DNA of 64,000 bases from a phage, in NCBI GenBank assembly GCA_012690745.1, contig GCA_012690745.1_4086.2. One strand, given 5' to 3'. The position numbers and the translations under genes were made by a program. Below, piece after piece: positions 1 to 43,646 of the stretch (the first letter of the stretch is position 1; every line of letters starts with the position of its first letter). The notes beneath the pieces were generated by a model. The model did no database searches. It saw only the letters and a program-made list of their open reading frames with translations, and was not told the DNA's origin.

Positions 1-119
1 TACTAATACATATTTCGGCAGAGTATGCTACAATAATTGTATTCAAATGACTTTAAACGCAAATGAAGATGGTAACAGTACTAACCTGTACTCCGGCATC
101 ATAGGTATACTATTCCTGT

Positions 120-308
120 ATGAATAATTACAAAGACTTCTATTTGAATACACTACCTACTGTACTTTCTCTAAGTGCTCAATGTAAAATCCCGCTGGAT
201 AATGCTTACGCCAGATATAGCTATTCCATAACTGTTAATCGATGTATAGAGAATCATTGCAGTACTAACCAGTACTATAACATAATCCTACTTATATTCA
301 GGTACTAA
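120..308 (+). CDS. hypothetical small protein (tandem repeat unit 1)
   Basis: Track ORF; paralogous to 310..492 and 508..699; no clear RBS. Confidence 0.3.
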   Translation: MNNYKDFYLNTLPTVLSLSAQCKIPLDNAYARYSYSITVNRCIENHCSTNQYYNIILLIFRY

Positions 309-309
309 T

Positions 310-492
310 ATGAATAAAGAACATAAAGAATTCTATATACGAAAACTAACATTCGTCCCCGTAAGAATATATAAAGAATGCGACCCAAGATTATACCTAT
401 GGCACTTCAATGAGTGCATAAAAGATTCTATATACCCTAAGAACTATAAAGAACAATTGTGCTCAGTACTAACACTAGTACTATCATATTAA
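310..492 (+). CDS. hypothetical small protein (tandem repeat unit 2)
   Basis: Track ORF; paralog of neighbours. Confidence 0.3.
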   Translation: MNKEHKEFYIRKLTFVPVRIYKECDPRLYLWHFNECIKDSIYPKNYKEQLCSVLTLVLSY

Positions 493-507
493 TTAATAGA
501 GAATACT

Positions 508-699
508 ATGTATAAAAACTTCTATATAAGTAAACTAAAAGAAAATGAACAAGTATGGATTAGATCTATAATTCCACTGGCATTTAATAGATATGCATTT
601 AACAGATGTACCGAGATTGCTATAGACCCTTATAATATTAAAGAGAATGTACAGTATAATCAGTACTACTATATCTTAATGCTTATATATAGAAAGTAA
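508..699 (+). CDS. hypothetical small protein (tandem repeat unit 3)
   Basis: Track ORF; paralog of neighbours. Confidence 0.3.
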   Translation: MYKNFYISKLKENEQVWIRSIIPLAFNRYAFNRCTEIAIDPYNIKENVQYNQYYYILMLIYRK

Positions 700-1096
700 T
701 TAAACACAAGTAGACAGGGGAAGCTCCTAGTGAACAACCTTTATGTACAGGCGAATTGTTAAAATTCAGCCTGGACAAATGCGATCACTAGGATTCTCCC
801 CAGGCTAAACCTCGTAATCATAGGTAGTCATAAGTAATCATATATAAACATTTATATGAGCACCGTAGAATCACAGAATGATTATATATGATTCAGTACT
901 GATTAGTATAGACAAGATTGCTCAAGAATGCACGGAAATGTGTGTGAATGATTCAGTACTGATATGCCACTAAGTAGGCAGAGGAAGTCTGCCGTACTTT
1001 GTAGTTTCCAAGCTCCTTTTCCATTTTGCAAATTACATCAAATGTAATCAAAAGTAATCACGCAATGATTAGTACTGAATTATTACTTTCATCTTA

Positions 1097-1141
1097 ATTT
1101 CAATTACCCCTTTACCCTTCGGGGTAAAATTCAATTACCCC
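1097..1141. repeat. Direct repeat ttcaattacccct x2 flanking a small cccttcgggg hairpin
   Basis: Read directly from sequence. Confidence 0.5.
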
Positions 1142-1337
1142 TTGAGGCTCCAGCAAAAAGTTGGTTAGTACTCCATCCTAAATCTGGATCGTAAAAATTT
1201 TGGAGTACCTATGAAATAAAAGTTGGATCTTCGAAAGTTGAAATTTACGTTGGGACGTTTATGATTTGTGGGATATAATGATGATTGTAGTCGGGTAGTT
1301 CTCAAGAATATCAGTACTGAAAGATGAAAGAAAGTTA

Positions 1338-1365
1338 TTGACATTATGATTCAGTACTGTATAAT
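1338..1365 (+). promoter_or_regulatory. sigma70-like promoter
   Basis: -35 TTGACA 1338-1343, 16-nt spacer, -10 TATAAT 1360-1365; no ORF over 25 codons follows. Confidence 0.5.
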
Positions 1366-1548
1366 GTTCTACATAGAGAGATGAGTTGCTGCGAACAATT
1401 CATTTACTCTACCTCCTGTCGTGAGACAGTACAGAAAAGATAGTTCCTCCTGTGGTGGTACATCTTTTTGAACCTCATATGAAAATCGTAATAACAGTAC
1501 TGATATTAACAGAATGGTATTAGTACTGATTTTAATCTAAAGCATTAT

Positions 1549-1568
1549 GCCACCAGCACAAGCTGGTG
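1549..1568. repeat. Perfect 8-bp-stem hairpin ccaccagc-acaa-gctggtgg
   Basis: Perfect inverted repeat; same arms recur at 7908-7915 / 7970-7977. Confidence 0.6.
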
Positions 1569-1823
1569 GATTCCCTCTAACAGTATTCAGTACTACATGA
1601 TGGTCTTCATCCTCCTAGGGTAACATAGTGAGGGCTATGATGGCAGTACTGAATACTCCCTTTCAAAAGATAGATCTATGGTATAGTACTGACGGATTTT
1701 GGGTGTAGTTACCCTGGATGGATTTTGGGCGTAGATATGTCTAGCCCTCCAGAAGTCTGGAAGTAAAGATGGCTATCCATCTAGACGGCTAAACGGCTAG
1801 ATTTCTGGATGGCTAGACGTTTG

Positions 1824-1923
1824 GACGGCTAAACGGCTAGATGGTTACACGTCTGGAAGTATAGACGGCTAGACGGCTAAACGGCTAGATGGTTACACGT
1901 CTGGAAGTATAGACGGCTAAATC
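1824..1923. repeat. Tandem 40-bp direct repeats (two full copies 1824-1863 and 1872-1911 plus partial copies), ACGGCTA-rich
   Basis: gacggctaaacggctagatggttacacgtctggaagtata occurs twice identically; degenerate copies extend upstream to about 1777. Confidence 0.7.
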
Positions 1924-2540
1924 AAAATTTTATTTTGTTTTTTCCAATAGTTCCCCTACCGCGTCGGGGTAAATTCCCCAGCAGTATCGAACGTTAGATT
2001 TTTCTGAATCTGGAATCATTATCTTATAAACTGGGGGCAATGTCAACGGCCTGGACGGATATTTTTAAAATTTTTTTCAGTACTGAATTTTGGGCGTAAC
2101 TATGCACCCGGTGGGCTTGAGTCTTTCTCGACTTGATGGAACTATTATACAGTACTGAAAAAATAAAGCAATACCCTGGAAGCAAAAAAGTTTTAATTAA
2201 TTTGCTTGCTATCCTGGGCCGGACTATGGTACTATATTTCAGTACTGAGAAAGTGCGTTTACCTGCTAGGGTGCGGGAGTGTATCCTTTTTTTATATCTT
2301 GAATTTTGGGCGTAATTCCGCACCCTCTGGGGTTTCCGCTTTCTCACGTCTATGTAGTAATTATACGCTTTTTCAGGATCAAGTCAATACCTAAAAACAA
2401 AATAATTGAAAATAATTTAACGCGTTTAAACGGCCTGTAAAGCCCTGGAATGATTGGAATGGTGCAAATGTATAGCTTATGTGTATTAATGCGTTAGAAT
2501 GCGTCTGAGGCCGTTTTATGGGGTGTAGTAGTGATTTGGT

Positions 2541-2632
2541 TGATTCAGTACTGAATAATAGTACTCCTATATAGAAAGATAGTTCCCCTGGATTGATTCA
2601 GTACTGAATAATAGTACTCCTATATAGAAAGA
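2541..2632. repeat. 39-bp perfect direct repeat x2 (2541-2579, 2594-2632)
   Basis: tgattcagtactgaataatagtactcctatatagaaaga repeated; contains two AGTACT sites. Confidence 0.7.
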
Positions 2633-2663
2633 AAACTATTTTAAAAGTATTTGTAGAAAGTAC

Positions 2664-2691
2664 TTGCACCGTACTGATAAAAGCGTATAAT
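2664..2691 (+). promoter_or_regulatory. sigma70-like early promoter with downstream 5' hairpin (2705-2723)
   Basis: -35 TTGCAC 2664-2669, -10 TATAAT 2686-2691; hairpin agcgggaa-cac-ttcccgct. Confidence 0.7.
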
Positions 2692-2746
2692 GTTTTACAT
2701 CGAGAGCGGGAACACTTCCCGCTACACTTTAAGAGAGATTAATACG

Positions 2747-3109
2747 ATGGCAACTCAAATCACCAAAATTATTGCTAACCTGGTTAACTTCCGCGACGAG
2801 ATGAAAGATCTTCCGGCGGCGACGGTTAAAACTCACATTGACGCATACCGCGAACTGATTAAAATGCTGCCGCTTAAGCGTGAACAATACGCCGCTACCG
2901 TGATGCTTGATGCGATGATCCATAAGATGATCGCCAGTGATTTGACGATGGTTTATCAGTATATGGGCGAAAATTTCGCGGTGTGTAGTAAGCCAGTACC
3001 AGGGATGGCAACAACTGAGGAATTGCACGGCTTAAACTTAAAACAAGATGCATGGGATAATATGCCTCGTTTCCTGGTATGGGCTGACAGTGGCAAAATT
3101 TACAAATAA
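2747..3109 (+). CDS. hypothetical protein
   Basis: Track ORF 2690..3109 trimmed to ATG 2747 (track ATG lies in the -10 TATAATG); protein starts MATQITK. Confidence 0.6.
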   Translation: MATQITKIIANLVNFRDEMKDLPAATVKTHIDAYRELIKMLPLKREQYAATVMLDAMIHKMIASDLTMVYQYMGENFAVCSKPVPGMATTEELHGLNLKQDAWDNMPRFLVWADSGKIYK

Positions 3110-3123
3110 GTTTAATAAAGTAC

Positions 3124-3151
3124 TTGCAAACTATGTTTAATGGCGTATAAT
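3124..3151 (+). promoter_or_regulatory. sigma70-like early promoter with 5' hairpin (3163-3182)
   Basis: -35 TTGCAA 3124-3129, -10 TATAAT 3146-3151. Confidence 0.7.
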
Positions 3152-3204
3152 GTTTTACATCAGGTGGGGAATAGTTCCCCACTATATAAGAGGATTAAAA
3201 AAAA

Positions 3205-3444
3205 ATGGCTAAATCAAAAATGTTCTTAGGTCACAAAAACAAAACTCATTGGAATGTAAGCCTGTGGATTAATAACGATGAGGGATTGTATCGGTTGGCC
3301 CTGGACTTTATTGCCGCCAATACTAATCGCAATGATGCGGCCCGTCATATGATGTTATTTTTAGAACAGACTGGACAAGATAAAACACCGGACGGATTCA
3401 AATATAGCACTACTGCGATCCGTGCGGCGATGGTTGGAATGTAA
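3205..3444 (+). CDS. hypothetical protein
   Basis: Track ORF; RBS GAGGA upstream. Confidence 0.6.
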   Translation: MAKSKMFLGHKNKTHWNVSLWINNDEGLYRLALDFIAANTNRNDAARHMMLFLEQTGQDKTPDGFKYSTTAIRAAMVGM

Positions 3445-3464
3445 TAGAATTTATTTAAAGTACT

Positions 3465-3493
3465 ATCATTTTTTTGCGATAGTACTTTATAAT
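3465..3493 (+). promoter_or_regulatory. promoter-like element (good -10, poor -35)
   Basis: -10 TATAAT 3488-3493; flanks resemble the promoter at 15935. Confidence 0.3.
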
Positions 3494-3530
3494 AGTGTTT
3501 TATTCATACACCAACGATAAGGGCAACAGC

Positions 3531-3797
3531 ATGAATATTAAGTATTTTGCGACGCGTGAACAAGCTCGGATCGCCGCACGCCAGGACGGGGCAACGTTTA
3601 AAGATATGGGAGCGGGATCGGCAAGTGGTAAACGTTGGGCCATTGTAAAGCGTAGTACGGCCAGATCATTACAGTACTGGTTAGCGGCCTTAAAAAGTCC
3701 CGATAGTGTATCGCGTCGAGTGGTAGAAATAAAGCTCGACCGAAAGGGCAACCGCGTGACCGTGTACCGTACTAAAAAGATTGCAGTACTTGAATAA
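3531..3797 (+). CDS. hypothetical protein (paralog of 16012..16407)
   Basis: Trimmed from track 3495; shares FATREQARIAAR...TFKDMG...RW and DRKGNRVTVY with 16012..16407. Confidence 0.6.
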   Translation: MNIKYFATREQARIAARQDGATFKDMGAGSASGKRWAIVKRSTARSLQYWLAALKSPDSVSRRVVEIKLDRKGNRVTVYRTKKIAVLE

Positions 3798-3804
3798 AAA
3801 GTAC

Positions 3805-3832
3805 TTGCAAACTATGTTTAAAGGCGTATAAT
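3805..3832 (+). promoter_or_regulatory. sigma70-like early promoter with 5' hairpin
   Basis: -35 TTGCAA 3805-3810, -10 TATAAT 3827-3832; hairpin gagcgggaactcttcccgc follows. Confidence 0.7.
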
Positions 3833-3884
3833 GTTTTACATCGAGAGCGGGAACTCTTCCCGCCTATAACCTGGAGTAATAAAA

Positions 3885-4115
3885 ATGACTAATATGTATA
3901 TGACTGAAGTTAAAACCGTAAAAGATACTACCACGAATAAAACTACTTACTTACAGCGGATCTGTGGTGTATGGCAACGTATCAGCAAATCAAAGTACTT
4001 TAAATTAACATCATATGCAAACCGTTCTGATTCATTCAGTACTGAAATAAAAGGTAATAAAGTACACCAATACGGCACTTATTATTATTACAGCCTGGAC
4101 GCGATTGCAGTATAA
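3885..4115 (+). CDS. hypothetical protein
   Basis: Track ORF; RBS GGAG. Confidence 0.55.
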   Translation: MTNMYMTEVKTVKDTTTNKTTYLQRICGVWQRISKSKYFKLTSYANRSDSFSTEIKGNKVHQYGTYYYYSLDAIAV

Positions 4116-4145
4116 GCAGTTTACAAATCTTTACAATTGCCGGTA

Positions 4146-4174
4146 TTGACTTATTTTGTCAGTACTGGCATAAT
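4146..4174 (+). promoter_or_regulatory. promoter (TTGACT/CATAAT class) preceding inverted-repeat element pair
   Basis: -35 TTGACT 4146-4151, 17-nt spacer, -10 CATAAT 4169-4174. Confidence 0.55.
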
Positions 4175-4197
4175 GTATTCATTGGCAGATAAGCCGT

Positions 4198-4272
4198 AGC
4201 CCATAGGGTGCGGGAGTGTATCTATAGAAAAATTAGTTTAGTATAGTTACAATTGTGCACCCGGTGGGTTAG
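4198..4272. repeat. Inverted pair of the cccaYagggtgc element (A copy 4198-4227, inverted B copy 4241-4272)
   Basis: agcccatagggtgcgggagtgtatctatag and inverted gtgcacccggtgggttag; family also at 2104, 2265, 2328, 6333, 10644, 12327, 14679, 17987, 20241. Confidence 0.6.
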
Positions 4273-4364
4273 CTGTTGTCATGGGGTATATTATGCCAGT
4301 ACTTGATAATGCTGTCAATACTTTTTTTTACTATCCAGTACAGAAAACTATTTTTAAAAAGTAC

Positions 4365-4392
4365 TTGCAAACTATGTTTAAAGGCGTATAAT
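4365..4392 (+). promoter_or_regulatory. sigma70-like promoter driving a conserved ~80-nt leader / candidate small RNA (4395-4475)
   Basis: -35 TTGCAA 4365-4370, -10 TATAAT 4387-4392; leader near-identical to 14797-14875. Confidence 0.65.
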
Positions 4393-4394
4393 GT

Positions 4395-4475
4395 TTTACA
4401 TCAGGACGGGGAACGAAATAAGTAACTTCCCGTTAAGTAGCCCAGGAGTAAGGCACACGAAAAACTCCCCTGATA
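4395..4475 (+). ncRNA. candidate small RNA / structured leader (copy 1)
   Basis: Transcribed between two tandem promoters; near-identical copy at 14797-14875, divergent copy at 7262-7330; contains hairpin cgggaa-N13-ttcccg; no ORF. Confidence 0.35.
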
Positions 4476-4482
4476 AAATAGT

Positions 4483-4510
4483 TTGACAAATGTTTTTAAA
4501 AGCGTATAAT
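4483..4510 (+). promoter_or_regulatory. sigma70-like promoter
   Basis: -35 TTGACA 4483-4488, -10 TATAAT 4505-4510. Confidence 0.7.
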
Positions 4511-4542
4511 ACTTACATCAACTACTGAATGAGGGTTATAAA

Positions 4543-5154
4543 ATGAAAACTATCACTACTACTACTTTCGTTATGGATTTTTCTGAATTGAACGCAGAAC
4601 AACAAACGTCAGCTATCGAACTGGTTCGGGAACGTGAAAAAAACTCAAACGACAATTATTTTTCTGAAAGTGAAATTGAATACTATAAAGAAACAGTACT
4701 ACCGGAATATGGCATTAATGACGCTGAAATACAATTCAGTGGTTTTTGGTCCCAGGGTGACGGTGCATCAATCAGTACTGACCACGTTGACGCAGTGAAG
4801 TTTTTACGCAAGGTTAGAGCGTTAACTAAGTATCGCTCAATCCGTCACCTGCTGAATGAAGATGAATTATCTATGAGGGTACAGCGTTCTCAATCCCGCT
4901 ACTCACACGAAAACACTGTAAGCGGGTACATTGAATCGGGGTACACTGATTTAACAGCAAAACAGGAAGCGTTAGCCAATGAGCTTGAGGAATTGCTTAC
5001 TGTTACTATTCGTGAATTATCTCGCAAGTTGTACCGTGATTTAGAGAATGCATATGAGGATCAATTCACTACTGAGAACATCACGGCACTGATCGAGGGT
5101 AACGAGTATCAATTCAATGTTATTGATGGCGTAGTAGAATCAATCGCATATTAA
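4543..5154 (+). CDS. hypothetical protein (203 aa)
   Basis: Track ORF; RBS GAGGG; contains FSGFWSQGDGAS segment; family not identified. Confidence 0.7.
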   Translation: MKTITTTTFVMDFSELNAEQQTSAIELVREREKNSNDNYFSESEIEYYKETVLPEYGINDAEIQFSGFWSQGDGASISTDHVDAVKFLRKVRALTKYRSIRHLLNEDELSMRVQRSQSRYSHENTVSGYIESGYTDLTAKQEALANELEELLTVTIRELSRKLYRDLENAYEDQFTTENITALIEGNEYQFNVIDGVVESIAY

Positions 5155-5209
5155 TTTAGTACTGAGATAATGGCGGGGAATGGTTCCCGCCTTTACTGAG
5201 GAATATCTA

Positions 5210-5497
5210 ATGAGCAAAGTAATTAGCTATACAGTATTAAGCAAGTCATTATCTATTAGCCAGTGCACTGATGGTTATTGGCTTTATGATGAATCGCGTG
5301 GCATGAATTTAGCTATGCGTGCAAAAACTGCTGAGGCGGCGTATCTTGAGGCACTGGAATACTACCAGGAACGATTAAAGGAAGTAGAAAACGATTATAA
5401 TAACCTGAAAGCGAAAGTAGATCATTTCGTCGGGCAATTCGTTGACGATGACGAGGAAGACGGGCACTACTGCGACCGTTGCGGATCTTACAGTTAA
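5210..5497 (+). CDS. hypothetical protein
   Basis: Trimmed from track 5180 to ATG 5210 with RBS GAGGAA; track start lies in hairpin 5173-5192. Confidence 0.6.
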   Translation: MSKVISYTVLSKSLSISQCTDGYWLYDESRGMNLAMRAKTAEAAYLEALEYYQERLKEVENDYNNLKAKVDHFVGQFVDDDEEDGHYCDRCGSYS

Positions 5498-5514
5498 GTA
5501 CTAAGGATTATCTA

Positions 5515-5721
5515 ATGAGTGATTTAATTGAACGTATCAAAGAGCTTGAAGAAAAAGAATTACAGTTAATCGGATTGCGTAATAAAGTTTATTCAGAGCT
5601 TGGAGGCTTCATACAGGCTTGGGATAGTGGTGATCCTGATGCTTTACCTGCTAACCGCCAGGCGATGATCAATGATGTGAGAAGTGTCTTTGATTATGTT
5701 TTAAAAAGTACTGGACACTAA
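5515..5721 (+). CDS. hypothetical protein
   Basis: Trimmed from track 5479 to ATG 5515 (RBS AAGGA); starts just after upstream stop. Confidence 0.55.
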   Translation: MSDLIERIKELEEKELQLIGLRNKVYSELGGFIQAWDSGDPDALPANRQAMINDVRSVFDYVLKSTGH

Positions 5722-5739
5722 GCAATAAAGGCGTATAAT
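5712..5739 (+). promoter_or_regulatory. sigma70-like promoter with 5' hairpin (5751-5772)
   Basis: -35 TGGACA 5712-5717, -10 TATAAT 5734-5739. Confidence 0.6.
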
Positions 5740-5791
5740 ACTTTATATCGAGAGCGGGAATAGTTCCCGCTACTAATGAGGAATACTACAA

Positions 5792-5956
5792 ATGAATACT
5801 TTTACCTTCGCTCAATTGAACGCCCTGGATGTATTGTCTGATGCTTTGCGGGATGCAACTGAAAGCGGTTTATTTGACAATGTTGACATTCACCCTGATG
5901 TAATTAATAATTTTTGTGATGCTATCGCAGAAGTACTGGAAGATCTAAAAAAATAA
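5792..5956 (+). CDS. hypothetical small protein (54 aa; not in ORF track)
   Basis: ATG 5792 after RBS GAGGAA, downstream of promoter and hairpin; stop TAA 5954-5956. Confidence 0.45.
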   Translation: MNTFTFAQLNALDVLSDALRDATESGLFDNVDIHPDVINNFCDAIAEVLEDLKK

Positions 5957-5966
5957 TAGAAAGTAC

Positions 5967-5994
5967 TTGCAATTAGTTTTTAGTACTGTATAAT
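5967..5994 (+). promoter_or_regulatory. sigma70-like promoter with 5' hairpin (6007-6025)
   Basis: -35 TTGCAA 5967-5972, -10 TATAAT 5989-5994. Confidence 0.7.
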
Positions 5995-6044
5995 AGTTTA
6001 CATCAAGGGGAGAAATGGTTCTCCCTGGTAATGAGGAAAATAAA

Positions 6045-6266
6045 ATGGCTAATATCACTACTCTTTCCCAACTGGAAGCACTGGTTAAATCTATGCGGGA
6101 ACATGCCGACAATATCGGCGTAAAAGATCCAGCCGTTTGCTTCTGCGACGAAATGAATGATGATACACTGGTAATAGCAGAAGTACAAGATATTTCTAAC
6201 TATTCATCGCGTTACACTGGCGGCGTAGCAAATAAAGGTGACTTCTGTTTATACCTTACCAAATAA
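6045..6266 (+). CDS. hypothetical protein
   Basis: Trimmed from track 6015 to ATG 6045 with RBS GAGGAA. Confidence 0.6.
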   Translation: MANITTLSQLEALVKSMREHADNIGVKDPAVCFCDEMNDDTLVIAEVQDISNYSSRYTGGVANKGDFCLYLTK

Positions 6267-6271
6267 CAACG

Positions 6272-6301
6272 CGGGGAGATAATAACTCCCCGTTACTTTT
6301 T
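6272..6301 (+). terminator. rho-independent terminator
   Basis: Stem cggggag / ctccccg, loop ataataa, then T-rich ttacttttt. Confidence 0.6.
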
Positions 6302-6434
6302 CAGTACTGAATCATTTAATAGACGGATCTCGGCACCCTGTGGGTTAGTGACTGTATCGTCTTTATGTAGTAATTATGCCAGTACTGGATGCAGTTGTCA
6401 ACAATTATTTTTCAAATACTTTTTATTAAAATAC

Positions 6435-6462
6435 TTGCTATTAGTTTTTAAACGCGTATAAT
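6435..6462 (+). promoter_or_regulatory. sigma70-like promoter with 5' hairpin
   Basis: -35 TTGCTA 6435-6440, -10 TATAAT 6457-6462; hairpin ggggagcggttcccc. Confidence 0.65.
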
Positions 6463-6509
6463 GTTTTGCATAGGGGGAGCGGTTCCCCTGGTAACTAAGG
6501 AATAAGAAA

Positions 6510-6746
6510 ATGGTCGAACAAATCAAATCAACGTCTTCGAATGTAACGGGAACGGTAGCACACTTTACTAGTGATGAATCGCGGGGCGTTCCCTATTGTG
6601 CTGTACATGTAAACACTGAGGGTAACTACTGGTTTACGGTTTACGGATCATATTCATTTGGACGGCCAGGGCATCAAAAAATTCTGGATAAAGTACAACC
6701 AACGGGTAAAAATATCACTGCCGAAATGTTTTATAAAAAATCATAA
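6510..6746 (+). CDS. hypothetical protein
   Basis: Track ORF; RBS AAGGAA. Confidence 0.6.
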   Translation: MVEQIKSTSSNVTGTVAHFTSDESRGVPYCAVHVNTEGNYWFTVYGSYSFGRPGHQKILDKVQPTGKNITAEMFYKKS

Positions 6747-6751
6747 AGTAC

Positions 6752-6779
6752 TTGATAATAGTTTTTAGTACTGTATAAT
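6752..6779 (+). promoter_or_regulatory. sigma70-like promoter with 5' hairpin
   Basis: -35 TTGATA 6752-6757, -10 TATAAT 6774-6779; hairpin gggggagcggttccccc. Confidence 0.65.
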
Positions 6780-6830
6780 ATTTTACATCGCAAGGGGGAG
6801 CGGTTCCCCCTGGTAACTAAGGATAATCAA

Positions 6831-7130
6831 ATGAAAATTGCAATCATCGCCCTGGCTTTATCTGTTTCCTCTTTCGCTGTTAATGCGTCGTTAGATGTAA
6901 GTAGTGAAAAATTCATTCAGTGCACTGTAGCGATGACCAATGAAAGTACTGGCGAGATTGTTTTAAAGGATTTAGAGATCCAGCCCGAAGCATTTAAAAA
7001 CGGGCCGTTCCATGAAGAAGACGAAAACGGTAGCACAACAATTTATTACGATGCAAGTACTAAACGCGGTTCGGTCACTGTAATGGATACTGAGAAAGTA
7101 ACGCACACAGGAGTAATTAACTGTTTATAA
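6831..7130 (+). CDS. putative secreted/periplasmic small protein
   Basis: N-terminus MKIAIIALALSVSSFAVNA-S looks like a Sec signal peptide with AxA site; RBS AAGGA. Confidence 0.6.
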   Translation: MKIAIIALALSVSSFAVNASLDVSSEKFIQCTVAMTNESTGEIVLKDLEIQPEAFKNGPFHEEDENGSTTIYYDASTKRGSVTVMDTEKVTHTGVINCL

Positions 7131-7147
7131 TCTAGTACTGAATCACT

Positions 7148-7176
7148 AGCCCACTTATACAGTGGGCTTTTTTGTT
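7148..7176 (+). terminator. rho-independent terminator
   Basis: Stem agcccact / agtgggct, loop tatac, T6 tract. Confidence 0.75.
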
Positions 7177-7226
7177 TTTGTAGTATCGTAGTACTGCATA
7201 CTTTGAAAATAGTTTTAAAAAAGTAG

Positions 7227-7254
7227 TTGACATTACCAGGGAAAAGCGTAGAAT
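7227..7254 (+). promoter_or_regulatory. sigma70-like promoter followed by ~100-nt leader (divergent copy of the 4395-4475 leader)
   Basis: -35 TTGACA 7227-7232, -10 TAGAAT 7249-7254; leader begins catcaagacggggaac. Confidence 0.6.
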
Positions 7255-7368
7255 GTATTACATCAAGACGGGGAACATTAAGTAGACCGCCAGTAAGTCG
7301 AATGAAAAACTGGACACGTCAAACAAACTTTGATAAACTAACTTAAACTTTAATTGAGGATTTATAAA

Positions 7369-7851
7369 ATGGCTAATGTAAAATCATTTCTGAAAGCACT
7401 GATTTCTAACGATACTGTTATTGCTGCTGAATTGCTGGCTGACCTGGATAATGATACCATGAAAGCAGTACGCAACAATTTTAACATTGCTTACAGTGAA
7501 GCGAAAGAACTACAAGCCAAAAAGGTAGCAGAACTGGAAGAACAGAAAAAAGCCCGTGAAGCAGAACTGCAAGCAACAATAGAAAGTATTCAGGCGGCGG
7601 TGTCTGGTTTAGATCTGGAAGTGGTTATTGAAATGGCACATAAAGCCCTGGCGGTTAAGTACGGTGAAGATAAGCCGGAATCTAAGCCTAAAAAATGGAT
7701 TCAAGAACGTGTTACTGTTGTCCTTGATAACGGGGAAGAACATTTGATTCCTGTACGCGGTAACTGCATTGCGGTAGTACTGGATGCAATCAAAGAAAGC
7801 GGTATGACTCGCGAGGAATGGATCGAAGCTCACCGCAAAGTTGAAGCATAA
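7369..7851 (+). CDS. hypothetical protein (coiled-coil-rich, 160 aa)
   Basis: Trimmed from track 7354 (TTG) to ATG 7369 with RBS GAGGA. Confidence 0.65.
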   Translation: MANVKSFLKALISNDTVIAAELLADLDNDTMKAVRNNFNIAYSEAKELQAKKVAELEEQKKAREAELQATIESIQAAVSGLDLEVVIEMAHKALAVKYGEDKPESKPKKWIQERVTVVLDNGEEHLIPVRGNCIAVVLDAIKESGMTREEWIEAHRKVEA

Positions 7852-7872
7852 CAATTAAAGTACTGAATCACT

Positions 7873-7900
7873 AGCCCACTGTATAAGTGGGCTTTTTTGT
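7873..7900 (+). terminator. rho-independent terminator
   Basis: Stem agcccac / gtgggct, loop tgtataa, T6 tract. Confidence 0.75.
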
Positions 7901-7907
7901 GTTTATC

Positions 7908-8022
7908 GTTTACCAGGCCACCAGCACCGCCTAGAATCGATTCTAACGCATTAAACTGATTATCTGATGCATCGCCCTAGCTGGTGGCGTTAAGGTCGTT
8001 AGAATGCGATTGAGGACGTTTA
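7908..8022. repeat. Complex palindromic region: arms ccaccagc (7908-7915) / gctggtgg (7970-7977), 14-bp perfect palindrome tagaatcgattcta (7922-7935), and cgttagaatgcg motif (7987-7998)
   Basis: Read directly; cgttagaatgcg also at 2492-2503 and 12043-12054. Confidence 0.6.
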
Positions 8023-8052
8023 AAGTATTTTGCAAAAAGTAATAAAAAGTAC

Positions 8053-8080
8053 TTGCACGATTAAGAGATTAGCGTATAAT
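8053..8080 (+). promoter_or_regulatory. sigma70-like promoter with 5' hairpin
   Basis: -35 TTGCAC 8053-8058, -10 TATAAT 8075-8080. Confidence 0.7.
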
Positions 8081-8135
8081 GTTTTACATCGAGAGGGGGA
8101 AACGGTTCTCCTTCCAAATCAAAGGAATCAAAACA

Positions 8136-8363
8136 ATGGCTATCGTAATCGCTTATGTAACTGGTACTACTGGCACTTCTTCTACTGTTGCTGTAATTAC
8201 CAACAAGAAAGGTGCGGAATTACATTCTGCAATGGATACCTGGGCGGTAAATGAGTTCGGTCAGTGGGCAAGTGTAGCATATGTTGAAACCTATCAAGTG
8301 CCAACCATTAGCTTAACGGATCTCGGTGTAGATCGTATCCTTTGCCTGGATGAATTAAATTAA
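8136..8363 (+). CDS. hypothetical protein
   Basis: Trimmed from track 8079 (ATG in -10) to ATG 8136, RBS AAGGA; starts MAIVIAYV. Confidence 0.6.
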   Translation: MAIVIAYVTGTTGTSSTVAVITNKKGAELHSAMDTWAVNEFGQWASVAYVETYQVPTISLTDLGVDRILCLDELN

Positions 8364-8371
8364 AAAAGTAC

Positions 8372-8399
8372 TTGCAAAGTAAATCAGATAAAGTATAAT
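8372..8399 (+). promoter_or_regulatory. sigma70-like promoter with 5' hairpin (8412-8430)
   Basis: -35 TTGCAA 8372-8377, -10 TATAAT 8394-8399. Confidence 0.7.
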
Positions 8400-8449
8400 A
8401 CATTACATCAAGGGGAGAAATGGTTCTCCCTGATAATGAGGAAACTAAT

Positions 8450-8593
8450 ATGAAAACTTGTCAATGTGGTAAAAAATCTATTACTGGTTTAAAGCGGGGC
8501 GTTGCTCTTTGCCAGTACCATTATAATTTACAAGTATGGGGTAAAGAATGGGCCGACCAGGTGGAAGCAGCAAAGAAAGCAAAAAGTAAGTAA
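8450..8593 (+). CDS. hypothetical small Cys-rich protein (47 aa, possible zinc ribbon; not in ORF track)
   Basis: ATG 8450 after RBS GAGGAA; CQCG...CQYH spacing. Confidence 0.45.
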   Translation: MKTCQCGKKSITGLKRGVALCQYHYNLQVWGKEWADQVEAAKKAKSK

Positions 8594-8612
8594 AATTATT
8601 ATCACAGTACTA

Positions 8613-8641
8613 TTGACATAGATTGATAGTACTGGCATAAT
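8613..8641 (+). promoter_or_regulatory. sigma70-like promoter (TTGACA-N17-CATAAT class)
   Basis: -35 TTGACA 8613-8618, -10 CATAAT 8636-8641; same architecture at 11472, 11751, 12274, 19570. Confidence 0.65.
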
Positions 8642-8674
8642 AGATTTTATCAAGACAACTAAGAGGAAATTAAA

Positions 8675-9019
8675 ATGGCTAATATCAACACTATCGCAAA
8701 ACAAAATATCAACCTGTCTTCTGTTGAAGTTGTACATATTGCCGCTCGGCGTTGGTTCCAGGCTTCATATGGTAACACTTATTTCTCTTTAAGTGTAGAC
8801 GTAGAAATTGATGGTAATTTTATTGAAGTAGTAAACGTGCCGTTCCAATATGGATACGGGGATCACTTTGACACTGTAGCAATGGAAGAATTTAGCAAGG
8901 TTATTAATATGGAAGATAAAGAGTTTTTACGCGGTTCTTATCTTTCCCGTTTTTGCCGTGACAATAATATCACTGTTTACAGTTCGGTAACTGATGTTAA
9001 ACGCAAAAAAGATCTTTAA
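8675..9019 (+). CDS. hypothetical protein (paralog of 15589..15912)
   Basis: Track ORF; RBS AGAGGAA; shares GNTY...YGYG...DVKRKKD with 15589..15912. Confidence 0.6.
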   Translation: MANINTIAKQNINLSSVEVVHIAARRWFQASYGNTYFSLSVDVEIDGNFIEVVNVPFQYGYGDHFDTVAMEEFSKVINMEDKEFLRGSYLSRFCRDNNITVYSSVTDVKRKKDL

Positions 9020-9099
9020 TTAGCTTTACTTTATGCAGATACTTTGATACAGTGTCTGCATAGGGGAAAGAAATTAAATCAACTTAAGAGGATAGTAAA

Positions 9100-9369
9100 A
9101 TGAAAAATATCAGTACTTTAATCGATGCAGGTACACATGTTCGTCGGTCTATGGTTGCAACCAGTTCTACAAAACAAGTACCAAGCGGTTATCTTGTATT
9201 TGTGCACGATGGAAAACTCCTGGAACGTTCAATCAATTTTGATGTTAAAAACAATTGCCGTTTTATTATCTTTAAGCGTGAACAATATAAAATTGATTTG
9301 CCAGCGAAGCCCATTAGCGGGGCGTACAGCGTACAATCATTGTTTGAGCGTCAACCTTACACCTATTAA
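9100..9369 (+). CDS. hypothetical protein
   Basis: Track ORF; RBS AAGAGGA. Confidence 0.55.
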   Translation: MKNISTLIDAGTHVRRSMVATSSTKQVPSGYLVFVHDGKLLERSINFDVKNNCRFIIFKREQYKIDLPAKPISGAYSVQSLFERQPYTY

Positions 9370-9420
9370 TCAAAACATCGTTAGCGGTCGATTTAGGCCG
9401 CTTATATTGGGGATTATACC

Positions 9421-9693
9421 ATGAACGTTAATCAAGTACTGAATGAGATCGAAAGCATCATTAAACCGATGAAGCGTACTGATGCTATGTTAACACCGGA
9501 AGAATGCCGCCTTTATGAGCGTTACAGCGTCGAACAAGTCCAGGCAATGGCTATGGCTACCCCAGCCGTTTCACCGCCTGAGAATGCGTTACAGGACGTT
9601 ACAGGGGATTATATCATTAATCCAGTACTAGGGAAGATGACTGCAATCACCGAAGATCAAAAAGACTACTTAAGCCAGTACTTAAAAGGTTAA
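9421..9693 (+). CDS. hypothetical protein
   Basis: Track ORF; contains 20-bp segment identical to intergenic 12047-12066. Confidence 0.55.
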   Translation: MNVNQVLNEIESIIKPMKRTDAMLTPEECRLYERYSVEQVQAMAMATPAVSPPENALQDVTGDYIINPVLGKMTAITEDQKDYLSQYLKG

Positions 9694-9698
9694 TTAAT

Positions 9699-9908
9699 AT
9701 GCTTACTGTACAGGATAAGATCGACATCTTAAAGGTTAATATGTATGTGATTGATGCCGTACCTGGTAAAGTATTTGCATACGATGACACCACTGTAAGC
9801 AATTTCTACTATAGCCAGGACGTGGGGGATCTTTCTGTACAGTCGGTTATTGAAAATGTAGTTAATGCAGCGTATGAGCATTTACTTTCAAATAGTACTT
9901 GCAATTAG
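9699..9908 (+). CDS. hypothetical protein
   Basis: Track ORF; 3' end overlaps the next promoter -35. Confidence 0.5.
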   Translation: MLTVQDKIDILKVNMYVIDAVPGKVFAYDDTTVSNFYYSQDVGDLSVQSVIENVVNAAYEHLLSNSTCN

Positions 9909-9926
9909 TTTTTAAACGCGTATAAT
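9899..9926 (+). promoter_or_regulatory. sigma70-like promoter with 5' hairpin (9939-9958)
   Basis: -35 TTGCAA 9899-9904, -10 TATAAT 9921-9926. Confidence 0.7.
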
Positions 9927-9977
9927 GTTTTACATGAAGGGGAGAAATGATTCTCCCCACTAATTAAGGAATATGAA

Positions 9978-10124
9978 ATGAAAGCATCAAAAAAGAGTAA
10001 TACTAAGAAAGCATGTTCACCTTTCGCTGGGGTATTCCCTTTACGTTTCGTTGATGAAGTGGTTTCCTACCCGCCGGGCCTTACTCCTGAGATGGTAGAA
10101 AGTTTGCGTAAATCTAAAAAATAA
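9978..10124 (+). CDS. hypothetical small basic protein (48 aa; not in ORF track)
   Basis: ATG 9978 after RBS AAGGAA; stop TAA 10122-10124. Confidence 0.45.
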   Translation: MKASKKSNTKKACSPFAGVFPLRFVDEVVSYPPGLTPEMVESLRKSKK

Positions 10125-10127
10125 TAC

Positions 10128-10155
10128 TTGCAATTAGTTTTTAGTACTGTATAAT
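10128..10155 (+). promoter_or_regulatory. sigma70-like promoter with 5' hairpin
   Basis: -35 TTGCAA 10128-10133, -10 TATAAT 10150-10155. Confidence 0.7.
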
Positions 10156-10205
10156 TGTTTACATAGAGGGGGAAATGGTTCTCCCCTGATACAAGGAGAA
10201 TCAAA

Positions 10206-10358
10206 ATGAAACAATATAATGCTCGGTTTGATGTTACTATCGGTAACGGCAAAGGTCAATTTTCTTTCAGTACTCGACGCAGTTATACAGAAAACTTCCT
10301 GCGTAATTGTGCACTGACCGCCGCTCAAATTAAACATTATTTTCAGGCTAAAAAATGA
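10206..10358 (+). CDS. hypothetical small protein (50 aa; not in ORF track)
   Basis: ATG 10206 after RBS AAGGAGAA; stop overlaps next start (ATGA). Confidence 0.45.
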   Translation: MKQYNARFDVTIGNGKGQFSFSTRRSYTENFLRNCALTAAQIKHYFQAKK

Positions 10359-10444
10359 AATCATTAGCTTATTACAGTTCGGCCCTGGTCGGTGCATTGA
10401 TCGCGGCGTTGTTAGTAACCTATCTATTCTTTATGGTGATTTAA
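10355..10444 (+). CDS. hypothetical small hydrophobic peptide (29 aa)
   Basis: ATGA-coupled to upstream ORF; sequence MKSLAYYSSALVGALIAALLVTYLFFMVI is one hydrophobic helix. Confidence 0.35.
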   Translation: MKSLAYYSSALVGALIAALLVTYLFFMVI

Positions 10445-10582
10445 ATGAATCCTAACGGTATAATTTACAGTACTCCTAAAACGAAAGCAGATAAAGCGAA
10501 AGCACGTAAAGCGAAAGTAAAGGAGTACATCAAGCAAGGCATGACGCGAAAGGCGGCGATTCTGAAAGCTAAAAATAAATGA
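10445..10582 (+). CDS. hypothetical small lysine-rich protein (45 aa)
   Basis: ATG 10445 one nt after upstream stop; highly basic. Confidence 0.4.
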   Translation: MNPNGIIYSTPKTKADKAKARKAKVKEYIKQGMTRKAAILKAKNK

Positions 10583-10587
10583 AAAAG

Positions 10588-10674
10588 TGGTTGACTTCGG
10601 TCAGCCATTTTGCTATTATATATTCATTGAGAGATAGCTCACTAGCCCACAGGGTGCAGGAGTGTATCTATTGT
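10588..10674 (+). promoter_or_regulatory. Repeated intergenic module copy 1: terminator-like hairpin with embedded TTGACT-N17-TATTAT promoter, then cccacagggtgc element
   Basis: Hairpin tggttgac-ttcg-gtcagcca + TTTT (10588-10611); -35 10591-10596, -10 10614-10619; element 10644-10674. Confidence 0.55.
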
Positions 10675-10723
10675 ATAATGATTGAGTACAGAAAACTATT
10701 TTAAAGTATTTGATAAAAAGTAC

Positions 10724-10751
10724 TTGCATACTATCTCAATAGGCGTATAAT
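10724..10751 (+). promoter_or_regulatory. sigma70-like promoter with 5' hairpin
   Basis: -35 TTGCAT 10724-10729, -10 TATAAT 10746-10751. Confidence 0.7.
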
Positions 10752-10802
10752 GTTTTACATCGCAAGGGGAAACGGTTTCCCCTGGTAATAAGGAAACGAA
10801 TC

Positions 10803-11144
10803 ATGACTATTGCAATTGCTCAATCTAACTTTGAAAACGAAATCATCGCTCAGGCACTGCGTTTAAATGATGGTCGGGCCGAAATCAATTACGGTTTCAA
10901 TAGTGGTGGATGTGAAAAATATCAGTACTTTGTAACGGCTGATGGCTGTGTCCTGGGTATCAATACAGTTATTGTAAACATTCAGAAAATTAATTTCAAT
11001 GATCCAGACGATAGCCAGTTTTACATCACGGGCGTAGACGTGAACTATGAGGATGACTCACTAACTGATGATCACACTGGCGAGAAGTTAGAAAGTGCAT
11101 ACGGTGAAGATGATTATCAGTCCGGTCCAGAAGATTTCGAATAA
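10803..11144 (+). CDS. hypothetical acidic protein
   Basis: Track ORF; RBS AAGGAA. Confidence 0.6.
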   Translation: MTIAIAQSNFENEIIAQALRLNDGRAEINYGFNSGGCEKYQYFVTADGCVLGINTVIVNIQKINFNDPDDSQFYITGVDVNYEDDSLTDDHTGEKLESAYGEDDYQSGPEDFE

Positions 11145-12598: not shown

Positions 12599-12856
12599 AT
12601 GGCTGTTGGATTCGCGAAGGACGGGGCCGAGCAAGACGAGATTAACGCAGTGATTCAGGCCGCTGTAAACCACGCTAGAACGCAAATTAACGCACAAATA
12701 GAATCACTGATACATTGCCTCGACTGCGGCGATAAAATCCCTGAGAATCGCCGCCTGGCCGTTAAGGGGTGTAAGTACTGCATCACTTGCCAGGCTGATC
12801 ATGATAGCATATTCAAACGCAATCCCCGTAATTGTTGGCATAGATCTATGAGATAA
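12599..12856 (+). CDS. DksA/TraR-family C4-type zinc-finger protein
   Basis: CLDCG-DKIPENRRLAVKG-CKYCITCQ matches the four-Cys TraR/DksA finger; RBS GAGG. Confidence 0.7.
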   Translation: MAVGFAKDGAEQDEINAVIQAAVNHARTQINAQIESLIHCLDCGDKIPENRRLAVKGCKYCITCQADHDSIFKRNPRNCWHRSMR

Positions 12857-12919: not shown

Positions 12920-13276
12920 ATGGGTATACAACATATCACGCGTACTACAGACAATGGTGAGATCACTGGCTATCAAGTACAAGGCAAAGTAGCACAATTG
13001 CAGTACTGGTTTGTTAAACGTGGCATTGTTGCACCGGATCTTGATTATGATCGTGTAGCGTTTATTGATTCTCTTTATGTTGATCCCGATAATCGCGGTA
13101 ACGGTGAAGGTACTGAATTAATGAATGCCTTTATTGATGCCGCCGATGATTCAGATTGTATCATCTTAGAATGCGATACGGGAGAAGATAACGAGTTTAA
13201 TCTTAAAGAATGGTATGAAAGTTTTGGTTTTGAAGTACTGATTAACTGTGAATATCCTATAATGATTTTATCCTAG
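12920..13276 (+). CDS. putative GNAT-family N-acetyltransferase
   Basis: SLYVDPDNRGNGEGTELMNAF resembles GNAT motif A; RBS GAGGA. Confidence 0.5.
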   Translation: MGIQHITRTTDNGEITGYQVQGKVAQLQYWFVKRGIVAPDLDYDRVAFIDSLYVDPDNRGNGEGTELMNAFIDAADDSDCIILECDTGEDNEFNLKEWYESFGFEVLINCEYPIMILS

Positions 13277-23011: not shown

Positions 23012-23316
23012 AACACTTAACTGATGATGAATTTGAAACTATAATTCGTAAACTAACCCCCATCACAAGGATAGTCTACGGTGACCCCAGCCTTACATGG
23101 AACCAAATGCGAGCTAAAGTTAATGAGCTATGGTTGCTGTACTTTATGGGGACTCAATATCAAGATAAGTTTTGCACAGAATATATCGAACAATTAACGA
23201 ATGTTATACAGGATAAACTAGATGATTATTTGCTCACAAAACATGAAGATTTTATCAGGAGTGGAGTATCAGACTGCCCTCTTCTCTCTTCTAAACACCC
23301 TCCGCACGAACAATAA
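23002..23316 (+). CDS. small paralog family member 7 (C-terminally extended)
   Basis: Motif FMGTQYQDKFC; the usual stop at the ctATGA junction is absent, so frame reads on ~30 codons over next gene. Confidence 0.5.
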   Translation: MQMKHLTDDEFETIIRKLTPITRIVYGDPSLTWNQMRAKVNELWLLYFMGTQYQDKFCTEYIEQLTNVIQDKLDDYLLTKHEDFIRSGVSDCPLLSSKHPPHEQ

Positions 23317-24580: not shown

Positions 24581-24581
24581 C

Positions 24582-24821: not shown

Positions 24822-24850
24822 TATTGAAAATAAATGTGAGGTTGATGAAC

Positions 24851-38204: not shown

Positions 38205-38213
38205 GATTATAAA

Positions 38214-38705: not shown

Positions 38706-38706
38706 A

Positions 38707-43641: not shown

Positions 43642-43646
43642 AACAA

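Follow-up and report, generated by a model that had tools for sequence, protein, structure and literature searches.

The AGTACT-rich non-coding region of an Asteriusvirus jumbo phage: a probable left genome end and leader of a long terminal repeat

What does a phage do with two kilobases of DNA that hold no evident gene and are crowded with copies of one palindromic hexamer, AGTACT? The question is raised by positions 700 to 2650 of a 64,000-nucleotide stretch of phage DNA (GenBank assembly GCA_012690745.1, contig GCA_012690745.1_4086.2), which we refer to in its entirety as the window and to which all positions below belong unless another genome is named. The original prediction, made from the letters alone, had described the region as free of open reading frames (ORFs) and had proposed that it is a replication origin, a packaging site or a master regulatory region, with AGTACT as the possible binding site of a phage or host factor. 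The reading that we favor, with a probability of roughly 0.6, is that 700-2650 comprises a concatemer junction, the left genome end and the non-coding leader that follows it, and that AGTACT is a separate, genome-wide signal, likely the site of a dimeric protein.

In a megablast search the region matched 37 phage records, all of them Asteriusvirus jumbo coliphages or Salmonella phages, at 88-97% identity and including 121Q, PBECO4, G17, phAPEC6, SP27 and fEgEco12. By sequence the source phage is assigned to Asteriusvirus, as a 121Q/PBECO4/G17-like jumbo coliphage of about 350 kb plus a direct terminal repeat (DTR) of about 21 kb. Most curated Asteriusvirus records carry no annotation under the match, and nine aligned Asteriusvirus genomes show strong conservation of the region. 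The genes of the window all run rightward and are mostly small. Within 700-2650 there are four ORFs of at least 59 amino acids, each interrupted by stop codons or frameshifts in at least three of nine relatives and none with a match in Pfam, which speaks against a protein-coding reading and bears out the description of the region as ORF-free in the sense that no ORF is conserved. A search of positions 1-4000 against Rfam (E up to 1) found no RNA gene, and an ARAGORN scan for tRNAs in the whole window found nothing.

The ends of related virion DNAs have been defined experimentally, by PhageTerm and ten restriction enzymes for fEgEco12, by PhageTerm for Sharanji (DTR of 20,668 bp) and by coverage for G17 and CBB, and it is through relatives that an end can be placed in the present region. 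The linear genome of fEgEco12 is 374,733 bp long, with a DTR of 20,993 bp (PMC13070987). Its first 360 bases are identical to those starting 20,993 bp from the right end and its last 300 to the stretch ending at 20,993; base 1 (AGTAGGCAGAGGAAGTCTGCC...) corresponds to position 973 of the window, the same sequence opening the right-hand copy of the repeat after ...CCCACTA, and the last base, which closes the repeat with ...GGGCGGGTAACCT, corresponds to 21677. In vB_Ec-M-J (DTR of 21,525 bp) the right-hand copy opens at the same AGTAGGCAGAGG, and the G17 record terminates, in reverse complement, in precisely the end sequences at 973 and 21677. Judged by this identity, the first packaged base and first base of the DTR would be 973 (5'-AGTAGGCAGAGG...), and the window would consist of the last unique DNA of the genome (1-972), one collapsed DTR copy of 20,705 bp (973-21677) and, from 21678 onward, the unique DNA that follows the left repeat. 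The proposed packaging role thus gains support, since the exact match to the termini of fEgEco12, vB_Ec-M-J and G17 puts a genome end and DTR boundary inside the region. Among the nine aligned genomes the DNA immediately to the left of the cut is variable and rich in indels, and beside it CAGTACTGATAT-CCACTA/AGTAGGCAGAGG (the slash marks the boundary) is invariant in all nine. To the right of the cut, 973-2746 constitutes a non-coding leader, because the first early gene, a counterpart of 121Q gene 266 that ends at 3109, starts at an ATG at 2747; about 50 small rightward early genes follow.

Comparison of boundaries across genera suggests how such ends might be made. Read into the repeat, the left boundaries are GCCACTA/AGTAGG in the source phage, TCCGCTA/TATCTT in the Klebsiella phage fENko-Kae01 and TCCGCTA/TATCCG in the Pectobacterium phage CBB, and the right boundaries, on the opposite strand and in the same order, are GTCGCTA/AGGTTA, GTGGCTA/AGGCAT and CTCGCTA/AGCGTT. 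CTA/ is therefore found at six of the six DTR boundaries of these three genera and GCTA/ at five. Because all six sequences share CTA/ on entering the repeat, we infer that sequence-specific cuts after (G/A)CTA, placed on opposite strands at the two DTR boundaries, could generate the ends as staggered nicks. Each nick would leave a 3'-OH outside the repeat, from which extension through the repeat, the classical route to terminal-repeat duplication, would copy it. The processing of very long, exact terminal repeats is a standing question, and the shared CTA/ would provide a testable nick-and-extend model. A (G/A)CTA/ rule at both boundaries on opposite strands appears to be undescribed in searchable papers. 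The termini of the relatives have already been published; a literature search found no account in these phages of the CTA/ rule, of the AGTACT signature or of the Chi-loaded repeat described below, a single giant-virus methylome match being unrelated.

The repeat is also loaded with Chi sites. The exact octamer 5'-GCTGGTGG-3' occurs 11 times in the window against 0.36 expected (none of 100 shuffles reaches 11), and ten of these copies, where about 0.1 is expected, lie in the DTR: at 1550 and 7918 on the minus strand and at 1562, 7980, 11988, 13449, 14714, 17097, 18504 and 20301 on the plus strand, with eight of ten thus on the plus strand and two inverted pairs among them. Seven of the ten fall within the 32% of the DTR that is non-coding, and the DTRs of fEgEco12, fENko-Kae01 and CBB hold 12, 14 and 9 copies, respectively. 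The perfect 8-bp hairpin reported previously is real, one base off its given coordinates, and turns out to be the first of the inverted pairs, its arms (1550-1557 and 1562-1569; dG -9.9 kcal/mol, z -4.5) being Chi and its complement; the same inverted pair is found 484-503 bp from the left end of fENko-Kae01. The hairpin loop, 1558-1561, is ACAA in some phages and TTGT, its complement, in others, with perfect arms in either case, which looks as if the loop had been flipped by recombination between the arms, and in phage A4 of the nine-genome alignment both Chi sites have been lost.

Chi acts according to its orientation relative to the end at which RecBCD enters, a rule restated in PMC12315714. 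By this rule the minus-strand site at 1550, 577 bp in, is predicted to be active for RecBCD entering from the left end, and the eight plus-strand sites, the nearest of them 1.4 kb in, for RecBCD entering from the right. Chi sites that face the ends in this manner would make RecBCD recombine the repeats instead of degrading the incoming DNA ends. Clusters of Chi at genome ends have precedents in P1 (50 Chi, mostly in or near the terminal redundancy) and in LLS and its lambdoid relatives (PMC12315714), in which the octamer is likewise far above expectation, concentrated at the genome ends and mostly oriented for RecBCD entry at the near end. The source phage differs from the LLS-type phages, which are without a recombination module, in being a virulent jumbo phage with its own UvsX/RecA-like recombinase, and from both P1 and LLS in having, as a new arrangement, an inverted pair of Chi sites conserved about 0.5 kb inside the left end. 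End-facing Chi in a virulent jumbo phage would broaden a recent observation, namely that RecBCD is recruited rather than blocked by some phages.

We turn now to AGTACT itself, which occurs 18 times in 700-2650 (at 895, 955, 1071, 1167, 1313, 1353, 1496, 1522, 1589, 1645, 1685, 2079, 2151, 2241, 2547, 2560, 2600 and 2613) against about 0.5 expected, the latter value being the mean of window-wide shuffles, 16.6 per 64 kb, scaled to the region. The earlier count of at least 15 copies of an extended motif holds for the hexamer core only, since AGTACTGA is present 13 times, CAGTACTG 11 times and TCAGTACTGA only 7 times, the last amounting to 41% of the 17 copies in the window. The abundance extends far beyond the region: with 255 copies in the window versus the 16.6 expected (15-fold) AGTACT is the commonest hexamer, ahead of AAAAAA, and CAGTACTG occurs 56 times versus 0.7. 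In phAPEC6 (350 kb) there are 913 copies, distributed over successive 50-kb segments as 146, 103, 78, 95, 105, 153 and 233 against about 17 expected in each, and enrichment extends to the replication, head and tail gene blocks; this profile is built from counts per locus rather than from a per-kb map for 100-350 kb. Genome-wide, the hexamer thus lies far above what composition predicts.

Non-coding DNA holds 8-12 AGTACT per kb and genes about 3. For 700-2650 the figure is 9.2 per kb, as compared with a window average of 4.0 per kb and with 12.4 per kb in the other non-coding DNA of the DTR; the region is not denser than the latter, and only the longer palindrome is locally concentrated. With a hexamer that is spread over the whole genome, as in phAPEC6, and a region no richer in it than the rest of the non-coding DTR, the notion of a master regulatory region defined by AGTACT is not sustained. 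The leader is the densest AGTACT zone in three genera (9-12 per kb) and exceeds the remaining DTR 2.4-6-fold in its content of the 8-mer CAGTACTG, and the only two perfect 14-mers, ATTCAGTACTGAAT, are at 2543 and 2596. Two islands, 21.7-26.5 kb and 29.2-36.65 kb, contain no site, where about 37 would be expected at the density of other genes. Directly after the DTR, at 21745-26468, a tandem run of about 20 overlapping genes encodes paralogs of ~70 amino acids (motif LGTNYQEEYV...KSKL) and has no AGTACT, and at the extreme right end of the unique genome, 120-699, there are three tandem paralogous ORFs of 60-63 amino acids (MNKEHKEFYIRKL...), the first two each with a close AGTACT pair just before the stop codon and the third with one copy.

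That these copies are maintained by selection is indicated both by their placement in genes and by their persistence. In coding DNA, 160 of the 255 sites are found, versus 49 +/- 6 after shuffling synonymous codons (3.2-fold) and 20 +/- 5 after shuffling codon order (8-fold), and all three reading frames are enriched (61/42/57). In a comparison with 121Q, to which the overall identity is 93.7%, AGTACT is intact at 91.2% of sites versus 76.8% for all hexamers and 77.0% for those of the same composition, corresponding to a 2.6-fold lower rate of loss; in non-coding DNA the values are 94.4% for AGTACT and 74.8% for hexamers. In the leader, 13 of the 18 sites are invariant in nine phages. Some intragenic sites are copies rather than independent gains, since the members of a paralogous gene family at 36700-47000, which share a peptide-coding block ...VLEGPWDSEEYYFQ..., carry AGTACT at the same positions.

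The signal is characteristic of a clade of phages. AGTACT is, as in the window and in phAPEC6, the most over-represented hexamer in a Klebsiella Rak2-like phage (88 vs 9.7 expected), in fENko-Kae01 (186 vs 13.3) and in CBB, both in the DTR (143 vs 7.0) and outside it (78 vs 7.7). In the Pseudomonas relative MIJ3 it is depleted (3 vs 11.8), and a 50-kb sample of E. coli K-12 contains 3 copies, or 0.06 per kb, about 50-fold fewer than the phage.

Positions relative to promoters provide a further clue to function. Measured from the -10 hexamer, the start of AGTACT lies 27 nt upstream in 21 cases (AGTACTTGCAA; the site overlaps the -35 element and spans -39 to -34) and 7 nt upstream in 14 cases (spanning -19 to -14). 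Among 999 sites pooled from four genera the spacing between neighboring copies has a sole peak, at 20-22 bp, with 46 pairs versus about 10 expected; Fourier analysis gave no 10-11-bp period, and we rejected a general helical periodicity. In the DTR, 30 of the 52 genes have an AGTACT within 20 nt past the stop codon, which is also the upstream edge of the next promoter. The earlier remark on the recurrence of AGTACT in promoter spacers and directly past stop codons is thus borne out. The flanks are symmetric, C being preferred before the hexamer and G after it; the adjacent base of the half-site is C at 42% of window sites and G at only 8%. An extended -10 element was considered for AGTACTG-TATAAT; the usual spacer base between the TG and the hexamer is missing and the promoter scan made no call, so none is claimed.

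A palindrome under purifying selection that occurs as phased pairs at promoters has, as far as sequence alone can tell, the properties of a dispersed operator. Because the site is symmetric and phased pairs bracket the contact points of RNA polymerase, AGTACT is most likely the core of a palindromic site of 6-12 bp, (TT)CAGTACTG(AA), for a dimeric DNA-binding protein, a reading that fits as well the purifying selection, the enrichment wherever coding allows it, the clade specificity and the near-absence from the host. The suggestion that AGTACT binds a factor is accordingly plausible and strengthened by the 15-fold enrichment, the three frames, the selection, the promoter positions and the four genera. 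No cognate protein was found in a check of a single candidate, CBB_511 (HTH_37), with no systematic search made; this HTH regulator was rejected as it is confined to CBB and GAP32 and absent from Asteriusvirus and the Rak2-like phages. A pair of dimers at -39 to -34 and -19 to -14, 21 bp apart, would overlap RNA polymerase and, by competing with it, would tune early transcription or turn it off. Nowhere are long sites, presumably those of highest affinity, packed more densely than in the leader. That most copies lie within genes suggests a further role across the whole genome, in the marking or organization of phage DNA.

In one respect the proposal recalls the stoperators of cluster A mycobacteriophages, dispersed 13-bp asymmetric and orientation-biased repressor sites of temperate phages that number about 25-35 per genome and are mostly intergenic. 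Both have one short site repeated genome-wide, in and outside promoters, and probably read by one DNA-binding protein; AGTACT differs in being palindromic, in numbering about 950 per genome, of which two thirds are intragenic, and in belonging to a virulent phage. A bolder and distinctly tentative version is that AGTACT is a self-marking code of the Rak2/121Q/CBB jumbo phages, read by a phage protein that tells phage from host DNA, for example to shield the former during destruction of the latter or to shut off early promoters; the leader, which has the longest palindromes beside the cut, would be the zone of nucleation or loading. If true, such a code together with staggered CTA/ nicks and end-facing Chi would amount to a concrete mechanism for making, protecting and recombining 20-kb terminal repeats. 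AGTACT is the commonest hexamer of a genome with 34% G+C, is shared by four genera and is built into early promoters; its reader could be a new global regulator or DNA-marking system. The hexamer also flags sequences that should not be recoded when these therapeutic phages are engineered.

Several points weigh against our overall reading. The termini of the source isolate are assigned by homology to relatives, and the CTA/ rule comes from six boundaries in only three lineages, with GenBank ends that could be one base off. The function of the Chi sites is deduced from their orientation, and the plus-strand bias also follows the direction of transcription. A 6-bp core is short for the operator of a transcription factor, about 80% of AGTACT sites are outside promoters, and the two AGTACT-free islands presumably function without sites. 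Methylation, RNA-level or priming roles for AGTACT also retain some probability, and these are considered below with the other alternatives.

Foremost among the alternatives, and in our view unlikely, is that AGTACT is read by a protein of the Enterobacterales host which the phage DNA titrates or recruits. The enrichment in phages of E. coli, Klebsiella and Pectobacterium, and not in the Pseudomonas relative, is what one would expect of such a reader, yet this phylogenetic pattern is equally consistent with a clade-specific phage protein. SlmA would be one candidate from among nucleoid or division factors, and we know of no other host factor with an AGTACT site. The hexamer lies inside the SlmA site, GTGAGTACTCAC, in which G1, T2, a purine at 3, A4 and G5 are required in each half-site (PMC3020112). 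The two sites thus share an identical central hexamer and are both palindromic, and the host range of the phages coincides with taxa that have SlmA. They part at the outer bases, GT(R)/(Y)AC, which SlmA needs and which show no enrichment in the phage: GT is not enriched at -3/-2, the position adjacent to the hexamer is mostly a disfavored pyrimidine (the C and G frequencies given above), and GTRAGYRCTYAC, with up to two mismatches, occurs 25 times versus 18 expected with no perfect copy. We have therefore rejected SlmA as the reader, and we judge a phage-encoded protein more likely than a host-encoded one.

It is slightly less probable again that a phage DNA methyltransferase acts on AGTACT and makes it an epigenetic mark of replicated versus unreplicated, or phage versus host, DNA in the manner of GATC at P1 pac or of oriC and SeqA. 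The palindrome is of the restriction-modification type (it is the ScaI site), a Dam-family N6-adenine methyltransferase is encoded at 60891-61409 (PF05869, E 7e-32) beside a cytidylyltransferase-like gene, phAPEC6 has a second, type II-like methyltransferase, and the pairing of sites at a distance of two helical turns is reminiscent of SeqA-type reading. To our knowledge, however, the PF05869 enzymes characterized so far act on GATC, and methylation alone, without a reader protein, fails to explain a 15-fold enrichment; with a reader one is back at the dimeric protein. ScaI and RsaI were not among the enzymes of the fEgEco12 digests (PMC13070987).

No more credible is the suggestion that the region is a replication origin, in which the 8-bp array (see the table) would act as iterons, the A+T-rich stretch would unwind and promoters would supply a primer or R-loop as at oriF and oriG of T4. 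Seventeen copies of the unit CTAGACGG do span 1781-1919 and are followed by an A+T-rich stretch at 1919-1945, a leftward promoter-like sequence (2046-2018) points into the array, and the region is, as noted, well conserved. The copy number of the array, however, varies freely among close relatives, and the array is missing from the equivalent place in fENko-Kae01; no initiator gene is nearby, and the T4-type genes that are carried (UvsX, UvsW, gp46/47-like) fit replication primed by end invasion, for which a fixed origin is unnecessary. Positions 1-10,900 contain no DnaA box (TTWTNCACA), and GC skew is positive throughout with no inflection; nothing positive supports an origin, to which the array beside the A+T-rich stretch leaves a low probability.

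An action of AGTACT on single strands or RNA, as a primase site at Okazaki spacing, as an endoribonuclease or processing site or through self-pairing of AGUACU, seems to us quite improbable. The genome-wide density, 2.6-4 per kb, matches the spacing of Okazaki fragments in order of magnitude, a palindrome occurs on either strand, gene ends show clusters of sites and neighboring copies can pair, as at 1495-1528. Against this, the symmetric flanks (C/G, extending to TTCAGTACTGAA) and the sharp 21-bp spacing at -35 and -10 point to recognition of duplex DNA by a dimer, many sites are upstream of transcription starts and the primase sites known to us are trinucleotides. That AGTACT is a functionless by-product of duplicated promoter cassettes or of mutational or repair bias is largely refuted and deserves almost no weight, for although the early promoters of the DTR are clearly paralogous cassettes and one-off variants are also raised (AGTACA, 101 vs 26 expected), neither accounts for the excess in genes over both codon shuffles in all frames, for the reduced rate of loss, or for the same top hexamer in four genera whose DNA can no longer be aligned.

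Returning to the junction and leader, it is useful to compare them with better studied systems, among them the concatemer junctions of T7 and T3 and the long terminal repeats of T5 and SPO1, which carry host-takeover genes. By analogy, the source phage would share with all of these ends that are exact and set by sequence, a direct repeat at each of them, a non-coding left leader with inward host-type promoters and a repeat full of small early genes behind individual strong promoters, and the inverted repeat at its boundary may be likened to the hairpin intermediate proposed for T7. It differs from T7, T5 and SPO1 in its 20.7-kb repeat in a 370-kb genome and in a T4-like replisome and T4-like large terminase. 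Genes of the DTR with recognizable domains, at 12599-12853, 12920-13273 and 17276-17914, encode a DksA/TraR zinc finger, a GNAT acetyltransferase and a protein with a weak protein-kinase match, respectively, and are consistent with a host-takeover module in the repeat.

P1 offers another parallel, as its pac site has hexamer repeats (TGATCA) that flank the cleavage point from which headful packaging produces the ends. Here too a palindromic hexamer is found on both sides of the cut, at 895 and 955 to the left and at 1071 and 1167 to the right, and fENko-Kae01 and CBB have 3-4 AGTACT within 100 bp to the left of their cuts, including a copy 15-17 nt before the left cut. The differences are that the hexamer is AGTACT rather than TGATCA and that the ends are exact rather than headful; moreover, with about 950 copies per genome AGTACT cannot by itself define the cut.

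The coordinates of the features that we recognize at the two boundaries and in the leader are collected in Table 1. The leader would thus bring together an inverted repeat close to the end, a consensus inward sigma-70 promoter, oriented Chi, the 8-bp array and cassettes that combine a promoter with CCCANAGGGTGC. Three of the repeat structures had been described before and are confirmed with minor adjustment: the tandem 40-bp repeats correspond to the array, with periods of 48, 40 and 8, the 39-bp direct repeats are 40 nt in length (2540-2579 and 2593-2632, 100% identity), and cccagggtgc elements are indeed present in the region as CCCANAGGGTGC, at 2104 and 2320 on the minus strand.

Table 1. 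Features at the DTR boundaries and in the leader (strand: +, plus; -, minus;., none assigned; / marks a boundary)
Feature	Position	Strand	Remarks
Inverted repeat, 23-nt arms 711-733 and 785-807	711..807	.	Last unique DNA before genome end; core invariant in 9 phages
GTAATCA-type 10-bp repeats left of cut	814..860	.	Matching pair right of cut at 1037-1060
Two TTCAGTACTGA sites left of cut	895..960	.	Site 955-960 is 12 nt before terminus, invariant in 9/9 phages amid varying surroundings
Left virion DNA end and left DTR boundary (by homology)	968..977	+	...CCACTA/AGTAGG..., first genome base 973; identity with fEgEco12, vB_Ec-M-J and G17 ends
Terminal inverted repeat AGTAGGCAGA-ggaag-TCTGCC(G)TACT from genome base 1	973..998	.	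DNA fold -9.7 kcal/mol, z -2.65
GTAATCA 10-bp repeats right of cut	1037..1060	.	Repeat searches
Inverted-repeat element AGTACTCCATCCTAAATC...AAATTTTGGAGTAC	1167..1208	.	Invariant in 9 Asteriusvirus genomes
Sigma-70 promoter-like site TTGACA-16-TATAAT	1338..1365	+	12/12 consensus; inward-pointing, AGTACT abutting -10, 365 bp from end; invariant in nine-genome alignment
Inverted Chi octamer pair CCACCAGC-nnnn-GCTGGTGG	1550..1569	.	577 bp from left end; kept in 8/9 phages; the perfect hairpin of the original prediction
Tandem array, 8-bp unit CTAGACGG x17 nested in 40/48-bp units	1755..1921	.	Copy number varies among phages
Sigma-70 promoter-like TTGACA-17-GATAAT	2018..2046	-	11/12; leftward, aimed at tandem array and genome end
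Small cassette, -10 TATAAT (2149-2144) with weak -35, then CCCACCGGGTGC (2104-2115) about 30 nt downstream	2070..2171	-	Promoter and pattern scans
Terminator-like hairpin and T-run containing GGGTGCGG	2268..2293	+	Pairs with CCGCACCC at 2317-2331
Small cassette, promoter-like TTGACT-16-TATAAT (2387-2360), then CCCAGAGGGTGC (2320-2331)	2286..2387	-	11/12; near-identical in fENko-Kae01
Two identical 40-nt direct repeats	2540..2632	.	Each with 14-bp palindrome ATTCAGTACTGAAT and second AGTACT
First early-gene promoter, AGTACT fused to -35 (AGTACTTGCAC), -10 TATAAT 2686-2691	2659..2691	+	10/12 match
Right DTR boundary (by homology)	21665..21690	-	...GGGTAACCT/TAGCGAC, last DTR base 21677; minus strand GTCGCTA/AGGTTA

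Some of these elements recur in fENko-Kae01, whose genome is otherwise unalignable. Its genome likewise opens with an 8-bp inverted repeat, of unrelated sequence, and the element at 1167-1208 (AGTACTCCATCCTAAATC...TTTTGGAGTAC) is recognizable 84-130 bp from its left end.

The promoters predicted from sequence in the leader and before the early genes have -35 and -10 hexamers at the 16-18 bp spacing of sigma-70; those at 3124-3151 and 3805-3832 match the consensus at 10 of 12 positions, as does that of the first early gene (2659-2691), and the inward promoter at 1338-1365 matches at all 12. Early transcripts (2692-2725, 3152-3185, 3833-3865 and most DTR genes) have a predicted start at a conserved ACAT followed by a G+C-rich stem-loop, for example GAGCGGGAACACTTCCCGCT, which is probably a 5' stabilizer or regulatory hairpin.

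The element CCCANAGGGTGC is present in ten copies, two in the leader and eight elsewhere in the DTR (2104, 2320, 4200, 4257, 6333, 10646, 12331, 14683, 17991 and 20245), each preceded at about 30 nt by a strong sigma-70-like promoter of its own; they occur on both strands, and some converge as pairs (4200 on the plus and 4257 on the minus strand). A structured RNA was considered for these cassettes and set aside, only a 4-bp hairpin being predicted and no covariation found; the copies may represent short RNAs, or else sites for a protein at about +30. Finally, at 700-1000 of fENko-Kae01, where Asteriusvirus has the 8-bp array, there are Fur-box-like repeats (AATGATTATCATT, GAGAAT/ATTCTC).

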